Sequence record: MZ726793.1
Strand: one strand, 5' to 3'
DNA length: 64,000 nt
DNA from: Escherichia phage vB_EcoM_ASO2A
Both the position numbers and the translations under genes were made by a program. A model generated the notes under the pieces. It did not search any database. It was not told where the DNA came from and saw only the letters and a list, made by a program, of their open reading frames with translations. Below are positions 16,287 to 64,000 of this stretch, piece after piece (the stretch's first letter is position 1; every line of letters starts with the position of its first letter).

Positions 16287-16958
16287 ATGAAAAAGTTTGT
16301 TGTTTACAGTCGTCTTTCTAAACAGAAAAAAGGTGAGGCACAATATGGTATGGAGAGCCAAGAGAACGATATCCGTTACTTCTTAGACTCTGTACCTGAT
16401 GCGGAAGTTATTGGTCAATTTTCTGAATACTATTCGGGTAAGGGCGATTGGAAGCAACGTAAGGAACTGGTTAAAGCGGTTGAAATGTGTAAAGCTACCG
16501 GAGCAACTTTATTGGTAGCTAAAGTTGACCGCTTGGGTCGTAACAACGCCTCCGTAGCAACTCTTCTAGAAATGATCGATGTTAAGATAGCCATCATGCC
16601 AGACGCAGATAAAATGGTTATACAGCTTCTGTCTGTTCTGGCTGAACAAGAAGTTAGAGGTATTGCTGATCGTATTAAAAAGGGTCTTGCTGTAGCAAAA
16701 AGCAAAGGTGTTTTATTAGGCAGTGCTAATCCTAAAACTGCCGCTGCACGTAGAAAAGGAAAAATGGAATACAACTCTGTTAAAGCAGACGCTTTTGCAG
16801 AGACATTCCGTGAACGTTTGGAGATCCTTAGAGATTTAAATACACCTTACAAAACTATTGCTGAAAAATTCAATAGTAAGAAAATAGCAACAGCACGTGG
16901 TGGTAAATGGGATGCTAAAACTGTTTCTCGTTTGTGTGCCAGACTGAACATTAAATAG
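16287..16958 (+). CDS. small serine recombinase (resolvase/invertase family, 223 aa)
   Basis: SD aggag then ATG 16287. VYSRLSKQ (catalytic Ser region), LLVAKVDRLGRN, EQEVRGIADRIKKGL; C-terminal HTH-like TIAEKFN...GGKWDAKTVSRL. Confidence 0.85.
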   Translation: MKKFVVYSRLSKQKKGEAQYGMESQENDIRYFLDSVPDAEVIGQFSEYYSGKGDWKQRKELVKAVEMCKATGATLLVAKVDRLGRNNASVATLLEMIDVKIAIMPDADKMVIQLLSVLAEQEVRGIADRIKKGLAVAKSKGVLLGSANPKTAAARRKGKMEYNSVKADAFAETFRERLEILRDLNTPYKTIAEKFNSKKIATARGGKWDAKTVSRLCARLNIK

Positions 16959-16966
16959 GAGAGGAT

Positions 16967-17389
16967 ATGAAACAAGAAAATGAATCTGTAGATCACTTAA
17001 TCATGCTGTCAGCCCTTTTTGCCGGATGGGACGTATTTTTTGAAAATTTGTTCAATTCTGCTACAGATGGTTCCGATTTTATGCGCCAGTTTAAACGACG
17101 AACTGTTGAGGACTATGCTTTCTATTCAGGTCGGATTGAAAAAGGTTACGAAGATACAAATACAACACTCACCATTAAAGTTTTAGATGTGATGTTTAGT
17201 GTTATAGATGCTATCGACGAAAGTCTTCCGATCCTAGATAATTGTAATACGAAAGTCTATGTTTACAAAATAGCTCGTGCTTATGTGTCTGCAAACAGTT
17301 GTCTTCTTTCCACCCAGATTGCCGTGAACAATCTTGCCAACTTGTTTGATGAAGGAGAAACTTTTTATGACAATCGATTTGAAGTGTAA
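16967..17389 (+). CDS. hypothetical protein (140 aa)
   Basis: SD taggagagg. Confidence 0.6.
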   Translation: MKQENESVDHLIMLSALFAGWDVFFENLFNSATDGSDFMRQFKRRTVEDYAFYSGRIEKGYEDTNTTLTIKVLDVMFSVIDAIDESLPILDNCNTKVYVYKIARAYVSANSCLLSTQIAVNNLANLFDEGETFYDNRFEV

Positions 17390-29125: not shown

Positions 29126-29616
29126 AAAACCTCCTCAATCTTGTAGTTTGACTCCATCTCCAACACATTTCCACGAACATCTCTCCGAAGAAAGGCATAA
29201 GCTTTATTAGGTATTGTAGACTCATATTTAACCATATCTGGCACAGCAAAAGATACTACTACTCCTGCTGGGCTTCTGTCAAGAGCCTTATTAATATTTC
29301 TAAGGATATCGTTAGCCAAGATTTCTGCCAATTCTCCAAGAACAGTTTCGGTTATATCTTTATATCCCATTAAATATTTGTTGATATCTTTCATCTCTGT
29401 ATTGTTCAGAGTATAGTCTAAAGGATAAAAATTCAAAGAGGAGTCACTTTTATGTGTCCACATGAAATGCACCCGATCCGAGCAGAATCGTAACCCTCTA
29501 CGAAGAATATCTTCTACAACAGGGAGAATTTCTTTTGTCACATCATTAACCATGTTGTAATCTAAGATTTCTGCCAAGTTTGTTCTTTGTTCACCACGTT
29601 TACGTCTAGGAATCAC
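29104..29616 (-). CDS. hypothetical protein (170 aa)
   Basis: GTG start after gaggg; start uncertain. Confidence 0.5.
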   Translation of the reverse strand: MIPRRKRGEQRTNLAEILDYNMVNDVTKEILPVVEDILRRGLRFCSDRVHFMWTHKSDSSLNFYPLDYTLNNTEMKDINKYLMGYKDITETVLGELAEILANDILRNINKALDRSPAGVVVSFAVPDMVKYESTIPNKAYAFLRRDVRGNVLEMESNYKIEEVLWQSSDQ

Positions 29617-30187
29617 TTGTTATTGCCCTCATTACCAAAGGTCGTAGAAAATCGTAAATCTCTTGTTTTGTTTTCCCACGAATGTTTAAACAAGGAACAT
29701 TATTGGCTTTAGCTATCTTCCAAGCCGTAGCTGTTCCACCTTTTGCATCTCCATGTTTATCAGTATTAGTACAAGCCAACAAGAAACATGATGGAGCAGG
29801 ATTCTCCAAATCTCTGCCTAACACTTGATGCACATTACGTTGGTGCAATTTTCTAGCACCCTGCTTAAGCTTTTCATAAGCTGGGTGAACATCTTTGATC
29901 CATTGCACAGAGATAGCATAGTTCATTGTATCTGGTTTTGCAAGAACAATAACATCACCTGGAATCTGATTACCTTTGAAATTTTCCCAAGGAACATAAA
30001 TTTCCTTGTTAGTAGGATTTTCAGACTCTTGGACACCTGTTTCAAAAGCAGAATCACTACCCTCTGCCTTACCAGACCGTAATTTAAACCCAAGGTTTGA
30101 AAGCCATTTCCCTATGCCTACCATCAAAGCCCACTCTTCTTCAGATATGTCCCTACTTCCAACTCCCGTATAGAACAGTTCTGCCAT
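29606..30187 (-). CDS. Rossmann-fold SLOG/DprA-like nucleotide-binding protein (193 aa)
   Basis: SD gaggtg then ATG 30187; FYTGVGSR ... SGKAEGSDSAF pattern. Confidence 0.4.
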   Translation of the reverse strand: MAELFYTGVGSRDISEEEWALMVGIGKWLSNLGFKLRSGKAEGSDSAFETGVQESENPTNKEIYVPWENFKGNQIPGDVIVLAKPDTMNYAISVQWIKDVHPAYEKLKQGARKLHQRNVHQVLGRDLENPAPSCFLLACTNTDKHGDAKGGTATAWKIAKANNVPCLNIRGKTKQEIYDFLRPLVMRAITSDS

Positions 30188-60401: not shown

Positions 60402-60653
60402 ATGCCGATCACTCCCCATTTGGGGTTCGAAGGATATATGCAAAATAGCTTTTATTTTAGGTGCCGTGCTTGTAATAGGCATTTGACAAACCACTCCAGA
60501 CGTGATAAAAATGGAGTCATCAAGGAATCAGACCTCTGTTCTATTTGCACAGGTTTGGCTTTTGATGATAGTCCCGAAAGGGTTTATCAGCATCAATGTA
60601 TAACAGACGTTCTCGTGTCAAACTTGGTAGAGGACGAACAACTAACAGATTAG
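60402..60653 (+). CDS. zinc-ribbon protein (83 aa)
   Basis: CRACNRH ... CSIC; start may instead be ATG 60438. Confidence 0.5.
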   Translation: MPITPHLGFEGYMQNSFYFRCRACNRHLTNHSRRDKNGVIKESDLCSICTGLAFDDSPERVYQHQCITDVLVSNLVEDEQLTD

Positions 60654-60661
60654 GAGGAACA

Positions 60662-60910
60662 ATGTCTCTATTAGAAAAACACGTGTTTGAAGATGGTAAC
60701 GGCAATGCAGTTTTTCTTTTCCATCCAGAAAAATACACATCTGAAAACAATGGTACAACTTCTATTGTAATCACTAAAGATGTTAAAGTTATTGATTTCT
60801 TGGCTCTGATGCGAGAGATGGATCTTGAAATTAATACTTTTAACGCAGAAGCTTTGGTTGTTGCTCTTCTGGAAAAGAAAGATAGTGAAGAAGTAGCAGA
60901 ATATGCTTAA
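60662..60910 (+). CDS. hypothetical protein (82 aa)
   Basis: SD taggagg then ATG 60662. Confidence 0.6.
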   Translation: MSLLEKHVFEDGNGNAVFLFHPEKYTSENNGTTSIVITKDVKVIDFLALMREMDLEINTFNAEALVVALLEKKDSEEVAEYA

Positions 60911-60917
60911 ATAACTA

Positions 60918-60947
60918 TTGACAAACGTATCCTTCATATGTTAGGAT
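60918..60947 (+). promoter_or_regulatory. tRNA-operon promoter P1 (CTATTGACAA type, extended -10)
   Basis: TTGACA 60918-60923, 18 nt, TGtTAGGAT ending at 60947; 9-bp inverted repeat ACGTATCCT/AGGATACGT at 60925-60951. Confidence 0.6.
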
Positions 60948-60960
60948 ACGTTCATCAAGT

Positions 60961-61150
60961 GTGGTAACAGGGTCGTTGACTTTTGTTAAGAGGGGCTTGC
61001 ACTGCGGTAGTGTTAGAGACTACTTCTTCAGAGGTTAGCTACCAAAGAGGAAAAGGAATAGTCTCGGCTCAAGAACTTTTACGCTGAAAGTTGGGCTTGG
61101 TCTTAGAGAATGTAGCGGTTCTCTACAATCGTCAGCGTCTCTGTTACCAC
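60961..61150 (+). ncRNA. about 190-nt structured non-tRNA RNA, first transcript element of the tRNA operon
   Basis: 10-bp closing stem GTGGTAACAG (60961-60970) / CTGTTACCAC (61141-61150), extendable by cgttgac/gtcagcg; no ORF; ends 6 nt before tRNA-Met. Confidence 0.4.
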
Positions 61151-61156
61151 ATTTAT

Positions 61157-61231
61157 GGCCCTGTAGCTCAATGGGAGAGCTGTCGGCTCATAACCGATAG
61201 GTAGCTGGATCGAAACCAGCCAGGGCCACCA
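61157..61231 (+). tRNA. tRNA-Met (CAT), CCA encoded
   Basis: acceptor GGCCCTG/CAGGGCC, anticodon loop CTCATAA, T arm GCTGG-ATCGAAA-CCAGC. Confidence 0.85.
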
Positions 61232-61233
61232 AC

Positions 61234-61308
61234 GTCTTTATGGTGTAATGGATAGCACAGGAGTCTTCTAAACTCTTAGTCAAGGTTCGATTCCTTGTAA
61301 AGACACCA
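61234..61308 (+). tRNA. tRNA-Arg (TCT), CCA encoded
   Basis: acceptor GTCTTTA/TAAAGAC, loop CTTCTAA, T arm CAAGG-TTCGATT-CCTTG. Confidence 0.85.
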
Positions 61309-61309
61309 G

Positions 61310-61492
61310 AACATTTTAACATGAATTAGCTCAAGTGATTTGAACCCACTACTGATCATGGTGGCAGAGAATGAGGCAAGTATGTCAGACATTATAAACA
61401 AAGGCCACGGTTATATTAGAAGACATAAATGCTCGAAGAGCACCGTTCGTGGAGAACGGGGTTGGTGGAGTCACCATTCATGGTAAAATGTT
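61310..61492 (+). ncRNA. about 180-nt structured non-tRNA RNA
   Basis: 17-nt closing stem AACATTTTAACATGAAT (61310-61326) / ATTCATGGTAAAATGTT (61476-61492), 16 of 17 paired; internal hairpin CCGTTCgtggaGAACGG. Confidence 0.45.
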
Positions 61493-61503
61493 TTAAAAAA
61501 CTA

Positions 61504-61533
61504 TTGACAACTAACATTATTTTATGTTAGATT
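61504..61533 (+). promoter_or_regulatory. tRNA-operon promoter P2
   Basis: aaaaCTATTGACAA, 18 nt, TGtTAGATT; inverted repeat CTAACAT/ATGTTAG at 61511-61530. Confidence 0.6.
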
Positions 61534-61541
61534 ATAAGTAT

Positions 61542-61632
61542 GGAAGGGCAAATCGACGTGGCGACGAAAACGGTCTTGAAAACCGCCGAGCTTGAAAGAG
61601 CCTTGGGAGTTCGACTCTCCCTCCTTCCGCCA
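61542..61632 (+). tRNA. tRNA-Ser (TGA), type II
   Basis: acceptor GGAAGGG/TCCTTCC, G73, loop CTTGAAA, long variable arm GCTTgaaaGAGC, T arm GGGAG-TTCGACT-CTCCC; D arm atypical in my hand fold. Confidence 0.75.
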
Positions 61633-61637
61633 GATTA

Positions 61638-61723
61638 GGTAGATTGGTGAAATGGTAGCCACGACAGTTTGCTAAACTGTAGTCGGAAACGGCGTGTAGG
61701 TTCGAGTCCTACATCTACCGCCA
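61638..61723 (+). tRNA. tRNA-Ser (GCT), type II
   Basis: acceptor GGTAGAT/ATCTACC, G73, loop TTGCTAA, variable arm GTCGgaaaCGGC. Confidence 0.85.
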
Positions 61724-61853
61724 AGTTCTTTTTAATATAGCTTACTTTAGCAGAGTAAATCTTCGGCAAGTGGCGGTAACCACTTTACCGATAACTCATA
61801 GTTAGTGGTGTGAACACTGGCTATTTTAAAAAGAATTTAAATATTAGTATTTA

Positions 61854-61941
61854 GGTGAGTTAATTCCGTAGGGGTAGCGGGGCAGACTGTAAATCTGTTA
61901 TCATTGCGATTCGGGTGGTTCGACTCCATCACTCACCACCA
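61854..61941 (+). tRNA. tRNA-Tyr (GTA), type II
   Basis: acceptor GGTGAGT/ACTCACC, A73, GCAGA-CTGTAAA-TCTGT as in E. coli tRNA-Tyr; D-arm junction atypical. Confidence 0.8.
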
Positions 61942-61947
61942 AATTAA

Positions 61948-62033
61948 GATGAGTTGGCTGAATGGTTTAAGCGGCGGACTGTTAATCCGTGTTCGAAAGA
62001 ACGATATAGGTTCAAATCCTATACTCATCGCCA
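61948..62033 (+). tRNA. type II (long variable arm) tRNA with GTT (Asn) anticodon and G73
   Basis: acceptor GATGAGT/ACTCATC, D stem GCT/AGC, GCGGA-CTGTTAA-TCCGT, variable arm GTTCgaaaGAAC+gat, T arm ATAGG-TTCAAAT-CCTAT. Confidence 0.6.
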
Positions 62034-62040
62034 GAATTAT

Positions 62041-62117
62041 GGACTTGTAGAGTTAAGGTAAACCCCCAGTCGCCAAGAGGCTTCTGGAATTGCAGGTATC
62101 GAATCCTGCCGAGTCCC
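62041..62117 (+). ncRNA. tRNA-like element without an anticodon loop
   Basis: acceptor GGACTTG/CGAGTCC, D arm with GG, T arm GCAGG..CCTGC (8-nt loop). The anticodon arm is replaced by CCAGtcGCCaagaGGCttCTGG. No CCA. Confidence 0.35.
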
Positions 62118-62123
62118 AGCTTT

Positions 62124-62198
62124 GCTCCTATAGTATAATGGCTATTACAACGGTTTTGTAATCCGTGGATCTCTGTTCGATTCAGAGTGGGAGCACCA
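62124..62198 (+). tRNA. tRNA-Thr (TGT)
   Basis: acceptor GCTCCTA/TGGGAGC, loop TTTGTAA, T arm CTCTG-TTCGATT-CAGAG. Confidence 0.8.
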
Positions 62199-62473
62199 AC
62201 ACAACATTAAGGGCACTGTGATTGATCGTCGTATCCTGTGCACAAGGTCTGTTCGAAAGACAGTGTTCTTAGTATTGTGTTGATCACACAAAAAGAGTTA
62301 CCTGAAACTTGACCGGAGTAGGGTTGGATGGGGCAAAAGAAGAAGCGGCTCTCCCATCGACAGCAACGAAGAATAATATTTGACTTTGGTTTTGTATTAT
62401 TTTAAGTTAGCTTACCGAACGTAGGGCTAGTCACCCAACGGGATACTCGTCACTGTCCCACTCAATAAAACTA

Positions 62474-62503
62474 TTGACAACCAATAGTAAAATGTAGTAT
62501 AGT
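62474..62503 (+). promoter_or_regulatory. tRNA-operon promoter P3
   Basis: aaaaCTATTGACAA, 18 nt, TATAGT 62498-62503. Confidence 0.6.
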
Positions 62504-62524
62504 AAAGATGTAGGGCGTTCTTGG

Positions 62525-62598
62525 TGTAGCGGTAGCATTCCGTCCTTCCAAGTCGGCGGCACGAGTTCGATCCTCGTAGAACGCTCCAAATTATTTAA
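62525..62598 (+). tRNA. tRNA-Gly (TCC)
   Basis: acceptor GCGTTCT/AGAACGC, loop CTTCCAA, T arm ACGAG-TTCGATC-CTCGT. Confidence 0.8.
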
Positions 62599-62678
62599 TA
62601 AAGGGTTGCCAGAAAACTTTCTCTTTTACTCATGGTTTTCTCCTTCTCTCACACCTCTTCTGGTTGCCCTTCATTAAA
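62594..62678 (+). ncRNA. long hairpin RNA with a 43-nt pyrimidine-rich loop
   Basis: arms TTTAATAAAGGGTTGCCAGAA / TTCTGGTTGCCCTTCATTAAA (about 18 of 21 paired); the loop contains TCTCCTTCTCTCACACCTC. Confidence 0.45.
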
Positions 62679-62686
62679 TGATTTAT

Positions 62687-62762
62687 TGGTTTGTAGTGTA
62701 GTCCGGTAGCACACGACACTTTGACTGTCGTAGGTTTGGTTCAAATCCAGACAGACCAGCCA
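62687..62762 (+). tRNA. tRNA-Gln (TTG)
   Basis: U1-A72 acceptor TGGTTTG/CAGACCA, G73, loop CTTTGAC. Confidence 0.8.
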
Positions 62763-62855
62763 TATAACAAAGGTGAGTCACTACCTCAAGTGTGAAGTTA
62801 AAAACGAGGAGCCGCCGAACACTTTCTTTTGCGGTGTACCTTTAGAATGTTATGA

Positions 62856-62932
62856 CGGAATTTAGCTCAGTTTGGTAGAGTGTACGCTTTGGGAGCGTAT
62901 TGTCGCAGGTTCGAATCCTGCAATTCCGACCA
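62856..62932 (+). tRNA. tRNA-Pro (TGG)
   Basis: acceptor CGGAATT/AATTCCG, loop TTTGGGA, T arm GCAGG-TTCGAAT-CCTGC. Confidence 0.85.
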
Positions 62933-62938
62933 ATTAAA

Positions 62939-63012
62939 TGTTTCGTAGTTCAATGGTAGAACCCACGACTGATAATCGTGAGATACAAGTTCGATTCTTG
63001 TCGAAACAACCA
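62939..63012 (+). tRNA. tRNA-Ile (GAT)
   Basis: acceptor TGTTTCG/CGAAACA, loop CTGATAA, T arm ACAAG-TTCGATT-CTTGT. Confidence 0.8.
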
Positions 63013-63014
63013 GT

Positions 63015-63084
63015 TTCCCGTTAGACTTACAGGATAAGAGTTCCACAATTTATTGTGACGCTGGTTCGAATCCAGCACGGGATA
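63015..63084 (+). ncRNA. tRNA-like element without an anticodon loop
   Basis: acceptor tTCCCGT/ACGGGAt and T arm GCTGG-TTCGAAT-CCAGC are intact. The anticodon arm is CACAA-ttta-TTGTG (4-nt loop). No CCA. Confidence 0.35.
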
Positions 63085-63090
63085 CATAAT

Positions 63091-63169
63091 AGCGGGATAG
63101 AGGAGTCTGGTCGTCCTCGCCAGTTTCATATGCTGGAGATCATTGGTTCAAATCCAATTCCCGCCTCCA
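63091..63169 (+). tRNA. tRNA with CAT anticodon (Met, or Ile2 if lysidine-modified), 1:72 mismatch
   Basis: acceptor aGCGGGA/TCCCGCc, loop TTCATAT, T arm ATTGG-TTCAAAT-CCAAT, CCA encoded. Confidence 0.75.
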
Positions 63170-63284
63170 AATATCGCTTGCCAGCGGTATCTTTGAAGAC
63201 CTTGCCTGGTTCCTTCTAAGATGGAGGGGTGCGACTCCTTAACGCACAATTATAATAAAGCATTTCAAATTAACAGTATTTATT

Positions 63285-63307
63285 AGCCTCCTTATTGGAG
63301 GCTTTTT
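63285..63307 (+). terminator. Rho-independent terminator closing the tRNA operon
   Basis: AGCCTCCttatTGGAGGCT + ttttt. Confidence 0.75.
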
Positions 63308-63326
63308 GCTATCTATTGAATAAAAC

Positions 63327-63355
63327 TTGACTTATTATTTTTTATATGTTAAGAT
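63327..63355 (+). promoter_or_regulatory. extended -10 promoter
   Basis: TTGACT 63327-63332, 17 nt, TGtTAAGAT ending at 63355. Confidence 0.55.
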
Positions 63356-63376
63356 AAAGTTTAGGAGGATTTTATT

Positions 63377-63673
63377 ATGCCTAAACTAAAACGTGGTCGT
63401 GGAAGACCAACAGCCGAAATGCAACAGATTTACGCAATGGATGCGGCGCAAGCAAGTGTAAAAGAATTATTTGCAGAGCATTATTTAGAAGCTATGCGGT
63501 ATATTGTTGAACTTGTTAATGATAAGGATGCAGCAAAACCTCTCCGCTTCCAAGCAGCTAAAGCTATTAAAGAGCAAGTAGAAGAATGGTTAGAAGAACA
63601 TTATGAAGCTATGGAAGAAGAAACCCCTGCCGTGCAGAATACAGATGACGTTCCTAAAAAGATCGTAATCTAA
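63377..63673 (+). CDS. small protein with N-terminal AT-hook-like motif (98 aa)
   Basis: SD taggagg; KRGRGRPT; acidic C-terminus. Confidence 0.6.
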   Translation: MPKLKRGRGRPTAEMQQIYAMDAAQASVKELFAEHYLEAMRYIVELVNDKDAAKPLRFQAAKAIKEQVEEWLEEHYEAMEEETPAVQNTDDVPKKIVI

Positions 63674-63722
63674 TCCCTCTCCTCTCTTGGGGCTTTGCCC
63701 CTCCTCCTTGTTATTTTTAACA

Positions 63723-63752
63723 CCCCTCTCCGAAAGGTTAGGGGCTTTTTTA
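63723..63752 (+). terminator. Rho-independent terminator
   Basis: CCCCTctCCgaaaGGttAGGGG + ctttttta. Confidence 0.55.
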
Positions 63753-63762
63753 TTTTTAATGC

Positions 63763-63792
63763 TTGCAATTATATATCATTTTGTGATAAGAT
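63763..63792 (+). promoter_or_regulatory. extended -10 promoter
   Basis: TTGCAA 63763-63768, 18 nt, TGaTAAGAT ending at 63792. Confidence 0.5.
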
Positions 63793-63813
63793 CAGATATG
63801 AGGAGGATAAAAT

Positions 63814-63984
63814 ATGCGCAATTTTGTAGTTAAAAATGATTTTAACCGTTCTTCTTATCATAAAGATAAAAAGAATGATTACACACGGGCTTGGAACTTG
63901 GAGGAAGAACTTTATGATGACAGAGAAGACTTGGGAAGAGATCCTAGCGGAGGCTCAACCAATGGAAGTGAAGAAGATAGTTAA
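63814..63984 (+). CDS. hypothetical protein (56 aa)
   Basis: not in track; SD gaggagg; MRNFVVKNDFNRSSYHKDKKNDYTRAW... Confidence 0.5.
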   Translation: MRNFVVKNDFNRSSYHKDKKNDYTRAWNLEEELYDDREDLGRDPSGGSTNGSEEDS

Positions 63985-64000
63985 CAACGCCCCTTCTCTT

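Follow-up and report, generated by a model that had tools for sequence, protein, structure and literature searches.

The spacer between the genes for tRNA-Gly(UCC) and tRNA-Gln(UUG) of Escherichia phage vB_EcoM_ASO2A, analyzed here within a stretch of 64,000 nucleotides (nt) from sequence record MZ726793.1 that is referred to throughout as the window, is a conserved structured RNA of the + strand and no random spacer. The element occupies 97 bases (62588-62684, +) as one long hairpin, and the core of its 43-nt loop is antisense to an entire translation initiation region (TIR), comprising a Shine-Dalgarno (SD) sequence, a spacer, a start codon, and the codons that follow. On comparative grounds, the hairpin probably represents a new family of small RNAs that act by base pairing and originate from the spacer of a tRNA operon. 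The weaker claim, namely that it is a functional + strand RNA element, can be held with considerable confidence; the fuller reading, in which the RNA would be a processed tRNA-spacer antisense that regulates ribosome-binding sites (RBSs), is plausible and is put forward tentatively.

A previous sequence-only reading of this DNA had placed a hairpin between tRNA-Gly and tRNA-Gln with a 21-nt stem of about 18 pairs and a 43-nt loop. The hairpin is indeed there, with ARAGORN and Rfam agreeing on the flanking genes, and the loop was recovered at 62615-62657 (+) with the sequence as quoted; the stem, although real, turned out to be longer. Its arms (62588-62614 and 62658-62684, +), delimited by RNA folding and by structural alignment made by hand, form 27 columns in the window, of which 25 are standard pairs (22 Watson-Crick and 3 G.U) and two are mismatches, A.C at 62600/62672 and U.U at 62607/62665. 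The fold of 62589-62686 reaches -24.2 kcal/mol, compared with -10.7 +/- 2.4 kcal/mol for 200 dinucleotide shuffles, none of which folds as well (z = -5.7), and the entire loop is unpaired in the centroid structure. The first base of the stem (62588) is the terminal A of tRNA-Gly, and a gap of 2 nt separates the end of the stem from tRNA-Gln; since the stem starts where one tRNA ends and stops 2 nt before the other, the entire inter-tRNA spacer amounts to one closed hairpin. The loop can be further differentiated into a conserved core, AACUUUCUCUUUUACUCAUGGUUUUCUCCUUC (62615-62646, +), which is the reverse complement of GAAGGAGAAAACC-AUG-AGUAAAAGAGAAAGUU, and a lineage-specific 3' part, UCUCACACCUC (62647-62657, +), which holds a non-conserved CACCUC. 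No Rfam 15 family overlaps 62588-62686 in a cmscan of 60500-64000 with permissive filters (E <= 1), which returned tRNAs and weak chance matches only. A tRNA or tRNA-like identity was rejected because neither ARAGORN nor RF00005 makes a call and the fold is a single unbranched hairpin; an intrinsic terminator, because of the 43-nt loop, the AT-rich lower stem, and the missing U tract; and a classical Hfq-dependent small RNA, because the stem is not followed by a T run and the terminator scan gave no prediction at 62684.

The structure is supported by a hand-made alignment, padded with N to hold register, of 13 distinct variants from five lineages of Stephanstirmvirinae. The same fold is present in every variant, with standard pairs in 98.5% of the alignment cells, and the stem taken across all variants consists of 26 pairs plus one conserved central mismatch. 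Compensatory changes on both sides occur in 11 of the 26 pairs, a number of doubly changed pairs that only 1 of 500 shuffles reaches, and the covariation score of 0.428 lies above that of the shuffles (0.260 +/- 0.016, with none of 500 reaching it) and drops to 0.156 or less once the partners are slid by 1-3 columns. Column 13 in the middle of the helix, whose 5' base in the window is the A at 62600 (+) facing C at 62672, is unpaired in all 13 variants and reads A.C, U.U, C.U, U.C, or C.C; because it is never paired whatever the bases, the central imperfection itself is conserved. A G.U pair in an RNA of the + strand appears as an A.C mismatch on the - strand. The alignment contains 50 G.U pairs and 5 A.C juxtapositions, four of the latter in the column that is always unpaired, and this asymmetry identifies the + strand RNA as the folded molecule, rather than a - strand RNA or a DNA cruciform.

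Conservation is strongest in the loop. Its first 32 bases (62615-62646) are 88-94% identical between the four main lineages, compared with 50-69% for the inner stem arms and 62-69% for the adjacent tRNA-Gly genes of the same lineages; judged by these identities, constraint is stronger on the loop than on either the stem or the neighboring tRNAs. Differences between lineages within the core consist of a 1-nt indel (A vs CG) and changes at its 5' edge, whereas AAA, AAG, AAC, or ACCCC takes the place of UCUCACACCUC in the 3' part of other lineages. Read as its reverse complement, the core spells GAAGGAGAAAACC AUG AGU AAA AGA GAA AGU U, in which 6 nt separate an SD sequence from the start codon and codons 2-7 are rich in A. 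When scored with a position matrix built from the phage's own starts, this complement ranks within the 61st-73rd percentile among genuine TIRs of the phage and hence looks like a normal start region, by which the notion of the loop as the counterpart of a 'super-consensus' start region was discarded. Among the anti-SD-like motifs that had been highlighted from the sequence, only UCUCCUUC is conserved, and it lies inside the longer antisense-TIR context of the core; CACCUC varies even inside the genus, where the ESCO5/REC/ukendt/nepoznato group has CACUUC, and the other lineages lack it. The proposed resemblance to the 3' end of 16S rRNA drew mainly on the unconserved CACCUC and is not supported, and a mimic of this anti-SD end, which would call for conserved CACCUCCUU-like sequence, was rejected on the same ground.

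The tRNA region of the window is 100% identical to that of Escherichia phage PNJ1809-36 and 99.9% identical to that of phAPEC8, a phage of E. coli, which makes the window's phage a phAPEC8-like member of the genus Phapecoctavirus, subfamily Stephanstirmvirinae. In BLAST searches, the element occurs as one copy per genome in 133 phage records, including about 70 Phapecoctavirus records with matches of 98-100% and about 60 records of Justusliebigvirus (phi92-like phages) with 81% over the 5' arm and the loop, together with Klebsiella phages phi1_175008, KP13-26, and KP2025 and Citrobacter phage Tr1; phages that infect Escherichia, Klebsiella, and Citrobacter therefore share the loop. The versions in phi92, phi1_175008, and Tr1 were found with the whole element as the query, and pattern scans of IMG/VR and metagenome contigs add one clade (L132, L165, L167, L169, and L170). 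In every lineage that was read, tRNA-Gly(UCC), itself preceded by a TTGACA promoter, lies upstream of the element, either adjoining it or separated from it by a 30-nt spacer (phi1_175008) or an HNH gene (Tr1). Two contigs whose large terminase is only 69% identical, L181 and L183, keep the same tRNA order and have no hairpin, its place being taken by a tRNA-Glu that lies 6 nt after tRNA-Gly, and a covariance model of the element detects nothing else when run over L181 and L183, the window, and the remainder of a phAPEC8-type genome. A multicopy or mobile element was rejected on the basis of the single copy per genome found by BLAST and the covariance model. The only genome with several apparent copies, all four of them partial, is that of phage WPEC1 (L188, PV659873.1), whose deposited sequence intermingles structural genes, early genes, and tRNA fragments without consistent order or orientation and is most likely misassembled. 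A miniature inverted-repeat element was rejected for the same single copy and because the arms covary rather than keep their sequence.

An exact match to a translation start is found in the phi92-like genus. Comparison of phAPEC8-type and phi92 genomes, orthologue by orthologue, revealed that in phi92 a 20-nt stretch of the loop is perfectly antisense (AAGGAGAAAACCATGAGCGA) to the start region of gp047, a gene for a DprA-like recombination-mediator protein that lies 36 kb from the phi92 hairpin. The resulting duplex of -35.8 kcal/mol ranks first of 423, the next longest exact match being 11 nt, and a position-specific model of phi92 start regions predicts only about 1e-6 TIR matches of 20 nt. 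Seen as DNA, the two sites form a direct repeat of 20 bp, and no longer repeat links the tRNA cluster of phi92 with the remainder of its genome. In addition to the hairpin, a second match is present in 20 of the 20 phi92-like (Justusliebigvirus) records listed, while none appears in Phapecoctavirus or Klebsiella-phage records among the matches listed; this second site was confirmed as the DprA-like TIR in phi92 and two IMG/VR relatives. No orthologous target common to the phAPEC8-type and phi92 genomes stands out; gp047 does so in phi92 alone.

Two side observations concern these start regions. The DprA-like TIRs of the two genera (gene at 29605-30187, -, in the window; 16707-17285 in phi92) differ in one sharp block of about 20 nt, GAGGTGATT-ATGGCAGA vs AAGGAGAAAACCATGAGCGA, between flanks that can both be aligned, as if the start region had been swapped. 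Moreover, as annotated in phi92, the block of small + strand genes at the right end of the genome (138-146 kb; L196 38000-46000) carries almost only weak motifs (GGA/GAG/AGG), and most other phi92 genes carry AGGAG or GGAGG; because these RBS classes differ in strength, an anti-SD RNA would touch them differently.

In the mechanism proposed here, maturation of tRNA-Gly and cleavage by RNase P at tRNA-Gln would free a spacer of about 98 nt, with the RNase P cut at the 5' end of tRNA-Gln leaving a 3' overhang of just 2-3 nt on the hairpin. The ends of the freed spacer would zip up into a helix of 26 bp whose central mismatch is fixed, which should shield the RNA against exonucleases; alternatively, the helix may serve as an RNase III site that is cut at the conserved imperfection to liberate the upper stem and loop. 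The helix would display a 43-nt single-stranded, pyrimidine-rich loop that most likely pairs in trans with one or more mRNA translation start regions, thereby blocking ribosome binding and/or triggering cleavage of the target. The loop is far more conserved than its one perfect target, which points to several targets, to a target conserved in the host, or to a further partner of the loop, for example, a protein. The initial proposal of a small RNA that sequesters SD sites is retained in part: a conserved + strand RNA whose core is antisense to a full start region exists, with a perfect 20-nt match in phi92-like phages, but no specific target is found in the window's phage.

Several results weigh against this antisense reading, and most of them come from target searches. 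Searches of the window's phage were made on a hybrid genome assembled from the window and flanking parts of the PNJ1809-36 record. In the window, the loop 18-mer has no match with up to 3 mismatches outside the element; in the phage as a whole, the best non-self duplexes (-29 to -33 kcal/mol) stay within the range of shuffled loops, and the longest exact TIR match is 11 nt, with the self duplex reaching -51 kcal/mol. The start region of phAPEC8_00235, which matches at 20 of 22 bases, was set aside because the gene is confined to Phapecoctavirus. The window's own DprA-like gene (start at 30187, -) has an unrelated start region (-13.8 kcal/mol), and 182 of 299 TIRs pair more strongly with the loop than it does. 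Among the orthologues of gp047, that of Citrobacter phage Tr1 keeps the SD sequence and the first codons and differs in the spacer, which yields a partial match (-23.9 kcal/mol), and that of Klebsiella phage phi1_175008 has an unrelated start region (-13.7 kcal/mol). Pairing of the loop with this gene thus ranges from a perfect 20 nt in phi92-like phages through a partial match in Tr1 to none in phi1_175008 and the window's phage, and the sole perfect target is far less conserved than the loop. On the host side, BLAST found no match of the loop in 5,426 E. coli genomes, and a 20-base degenerate target pattern run against 185,579 species genomes hit no Enterobacteriaceae, both searches being able to detect near-perfect matches only; the rRNA operon rrnH as a partner was rejected, its complementarity being no better than that of shuffles. 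Literature searches on phAPEC8- or phi92-like phages found no reports of small RNAs or transcriptomes. In addition, the structural alignment was fitted to the structure by hand and its 13 sequences are related, and the metagenomic variants were fetched by loop sequence, which inflates the apparent invariance of the loop.

Taken collectively, the start regions of the window's phage do pair with the loop more strongly than expected. Across 202 of them, the mean duplex energy is -16.5 kcal/mol, compared with -13.8 +/- 0.9 kcal/mol for composition-matched shuffles, and 67 of the 202 reach -18 kcal/mol or lower, compared with 31 +/- 11 for shuffled loops (maximum 57), although the best single duplex in the set (-33.2 kcal/mol) remains within the shuffle range. 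Selectivity for phage over host start regions was rejected, as phage starts average -15.3 kcal/mol and a sample of 70 E. coli starts -14.6 kcal/mol (p = 0.12). An alternative, regarded as improbable, is that the RNA would act as a general trap for translation start regions, in which an anti-SD sequence and the initiator anticodon triplet (CAU), held at a ribosome-like spacing, compete with the 30S subunit for many mRNAs; if true, the phage could reset or time translation globally. In a variant of this alternative, the RNA would be a weapon in mixed infections and silence the DprA-like gene of phi92-type competitors, a thought that arises because phAPEC8-type phages possess the antisense loop and their own gene lacks the matching start region.

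Among the explanations without antisense action, the most substantial is a cassette for processing or insulation only, in which the helix would be a site for RNase III or another endonuclease that parts tRNA-Gly from the downstream tRNAs, the spacer would be kept from disturbing tRNA folding, and the excised piece would have no function in trans. The helix takes in the final base of tRNA-Gly and leaves only 2-3 nt before tRNA-Gln, so that an endonuclease cut seems necessary for 3' maturation of tRNA-Gly; a fixed mismatch in the middle of a 26-bp helix also resembles RNase III sites that are cut once, and other spacers of the cluster are likewise end-paired or cloverleaf-like. Such a cassette, however, leaves unexplained why 32 loop bases are retained despite diverging arms and tRNAs and why the phi92 loop matches a TIR perfectly over 20 nt, and the close outgroups L181 and L183 do without the element altogether; it is therefore considered unlikely as the whole explanation. 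A protein decoy or sponge is less probable still. Here, the pyrimidine-rich loop would bind, titrate, or recruit a conserved RNA-binding protein, with ribosomal protein S1, Hfq, Rho, a cold-shock protein, and a phage factor as candidates. The composition of the loop (only 2 of its 43 nt are G, and the tracts UUUCUCUUUU and UUUUCUCCUU resemble each other) is in keeping with this idea, its invariance in phages of three host genera (Escherichia, Klebsiella, and Citrobacter) would suit a partner conserved in the hosts, and no conserved RNA target was found; yet the sites of such proteins are usually degenerate, which agrees poorly with 32 nearly invariant bases, and both the register of SD sequence, 6-nt spacer, and AUG and the 20-nt match of phi92 would have to be coincidences.

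The remaining rivals place the meaning of the element in its DNA or on its other strand. A DNA-level element or relic, for example, an inverted gene start kept by chance, a homing-endonuclease site, or a mobile inverted-repeat element, would account for the presence or absence of the hairpin as a unit between lineages, for the HNH genes inserted directly beside it in Tr1 and nepoznato, and for the phi92 match as a 20-bp direct repeat in DNA. It is nonetheless judged quite improbable, since the compensatory changes and the excess of G.U over A.C show selection on pairing in the + strand RNA, every genome apart from the one scrambled assembly has a single copy, and a relic would not be expected to keep its loop while its stem arms diverge by 31-50%. 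Finally, the - strand could hold an RBS and ATG that start a tiny open reading frame (ORF; MSKRESFLATLY). The - strand does read GAAGGAGAAAACC ATG AGT... at an ideal SD spacing, and the 17-mer AAGGAGAAAACCATGAG marks a true start of a gene in over 100 unrelated viral contigs; when viral contigs were scanned with this loop 17-mer or with GGAG...ATGAGCGAAAAGAG, the matches were mostly unrelated gene starts. This reading is, however, hardly tenable. Promoter prediction yields nothing on the - strand, and the region is embedded in a long block of + strand genes; owing to the 1-nt indel, the lineages differ in reading frame after codon 2, and the peptides are 8-14 aa long, unrelated past the first residues, and terminated at differing positions in the stem; phages phiWec188/190 carry CUUAUGG, by which the - strand ATG becomes ATA whereas a G.U pair with the target would stay; and the G.U/A.C asymmetry points to the + strand. 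A cis-encoded antisense RNA of the RNA-OUT/Sok type was rejected on related grounds, namely the lack of a predicted - strand promoter, the frame-shifted - strand ORF, and the loss of its ATG in two isolates. As the - strand gene reading fails, the meaningful reading is that of a + strand loop antisense to a translation start region.

By location, the closest known counterparts of the hairpin are small non-tRNA RNAs encoded within or between the tRNA genes of virulent phages and carried on the same transcripts. The RNAs of T4 bands C and D are non-tRNA small RNAs in the tRNA cluster of a virulent phage, and sRNA2 of PAK_P3 is an abundant RNA of about 100 nt between two phage tRNAs that was proposed to act on translation (PMC4933390). 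The likeness to these RNAs is one of location only, with no kinship in sequence or structure being claimed; they have no known anti-RBS loop, and the case for the hairpin is a comparative one.

In E. coli, the 3'ETS-leuZ fragment of the glyW-cysT-leuZ precursor is an Hfq-bound sponge for RyhB and RybB that carries the operon terminator. The hairpin would resemble it as a base-pairing by-product of tRNA precursor processing, and differs from it as a long, closed, internal spacer that has no terminator and whose loop is antisense to an mRNA start region. The closest architecture is that of IS10 RNA-OUT and of Sok and CopA of plasmid R1, hairpin antisense RNAs that are cis-encoded opposite their targets; a long imperfect stem, an exposed loop complementary to an SD/AUG region, and the absence of an Hfq-type terminator module are common to them and the hairpin, but the latter lies in a tRNA operon, its opposite strand is by prediction untranscribed, and it would have to act in trans. 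The closest loop chemistry is that of the RNAIII hairpins of Staphylococcus and of RsaE/RoxS, in which short UCCC motifs pair with the SD sequences of several mRNAs in Gram-positive bacteria. A pyrimidine-rich unpaired loop on a stable hairpin is shared with these RNAs, whereas the complementarity of the hairpin, found in an enterobacterial phage, spans the SD sequence, spacer, AUG, and six codons. Similarly, a helix that spans about 26 bp, contains an internal mismatch, and belongs to a polycistronic precursor of stable RNAs, situated where cleavage would part the neighboring mature RNAs, is reminiscent of the RNase III stems of rRNA operons and of the T7 R1.1 type, although such sites need no conserved 32-nt loop.

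To our knowledge, very few regulatory RNAs of virulent phages have been described, and we know of no function assigned to the T4 band C/D RNAs or to PAK_P3 sRNA2 in decades. The hairpin offers a concrete case with strong covariation, a loop more conserved than the neighboring tRNAs, and an exact predicted mRNA target in one genus. If the antisense reading is true, phage tRNA operons would double as delivery vehicles for antisense regulators, and a new RNA family would become available for annotating about 130 genomes of coliphages and Klebsiella phages used in phage therapy work.

The hairpin has the layout of a tRNA-operon spacer, being situated between same-strand tRNA genes within one unit that runs from promoter to terminator, and the same layout recurs in relatives. 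A predicted sigma-70-type promoter (62474-62503, +; TTGACA, 18 nt, TATAGT; 11 of 12 consensus positions) should drive a transcript of tRNA-Gly (62515-62588, +; ARAGORN; 56 bits with the Rfam tRNA model), hairpin, and tRNA-Gln (62687-62762, +; ARAGORN and Rfam tRNA), and an intrinsic-terminator-like hairpin with a T run (63285-63303, +), found by a consensus scan, is likely the end of the operon. Within 60800-63500, promoters are predicted on the + strand only, and the predicted terminator is also on the + strand; from this arrangement, + strand transcription of the hairpin is expected, inside a tRNA precursor of about 800 nt. The promoter belongs to a module (AAAACTATTGACAA...) that is present three times (60907-60924, 61493-61519, and 62463-62489, +), each time with TTGACA, 18 nt, and TAnnnT, and the three modules split the tRNA cluster into separate transcription units.

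Further RNAs in the cluster escape one or another of the annotation tools. At 61542-61628 (+), a tRNA with a long variable arm receives no ARAGORN call and scores 37.4 bits with the tRNA-Sec model, which is below the gathering score; by position, it resembles the tRNA-Ser(UGA) annotated as a pseudogene in phi92. A tRNA-Tyr at 61854-61938 (+; 39 bits) likewise lacks an ARAGORN call and is annotated in phAPEC8. The spacers at 62034-62123 and 63013-63090 (+) form cloverleaf-like folds with good T-arms (z = -2.0 and -3.9, respectively), are recognized by neither ARAGORN nor Rfam, and may be decayed or unusual tRNAs. Three non-tRNA spacers (61724-61853, 60957-61154, and 61310-61492, +) are bounded by inverted repeats of 17-35 nt, the spacer at 61724-61853 folding with an 11-bp closing stem (z = -3.9), and the cluster as a whole seems to be assembled from end-paired RNA modules. 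These spacers are also shuffled as cassettes: the Gln-Pro spacer (62769-62850) is absent in phage DE16 and probably also in the other records whose matches span 93% of the query in two segments, and in phi92 a homologous piece lies directly after the hairpin, fused to the truncated 5' end of tRNA-Gln.

Insertions and replacements close to the hairpin were observed in several relatives. Citrobacter phage Tr1, the sole variant whose loop core is altered within its pyrimidine tract, has an HNH homing-endonuclease gene immediately 5' of the hairpin (L127 1156-1502), and another such gene lies about 25 nt 3' of the hairpin in phage nepoznato (L192 280-403), where it replaces tRNA-Gln. In Klebsiella phage ZCKP1 (L002 1764-2467), some 700 bp inserted just upstream of the promoter for tRNA-Gly (at about 62455-62465 of the window) encode an XRE/HigA-like 'antidote' protein. 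Several relatives also carry an 88-nt 'tRNA-Glu(UUC)' after tRNA-Gly or the hairpin (L005 1590-1678; L132 3667-3754; L181 2190-2277), with a long variable arm that is unusual for tRNA-Glu; this gene is absent from the window's phage.

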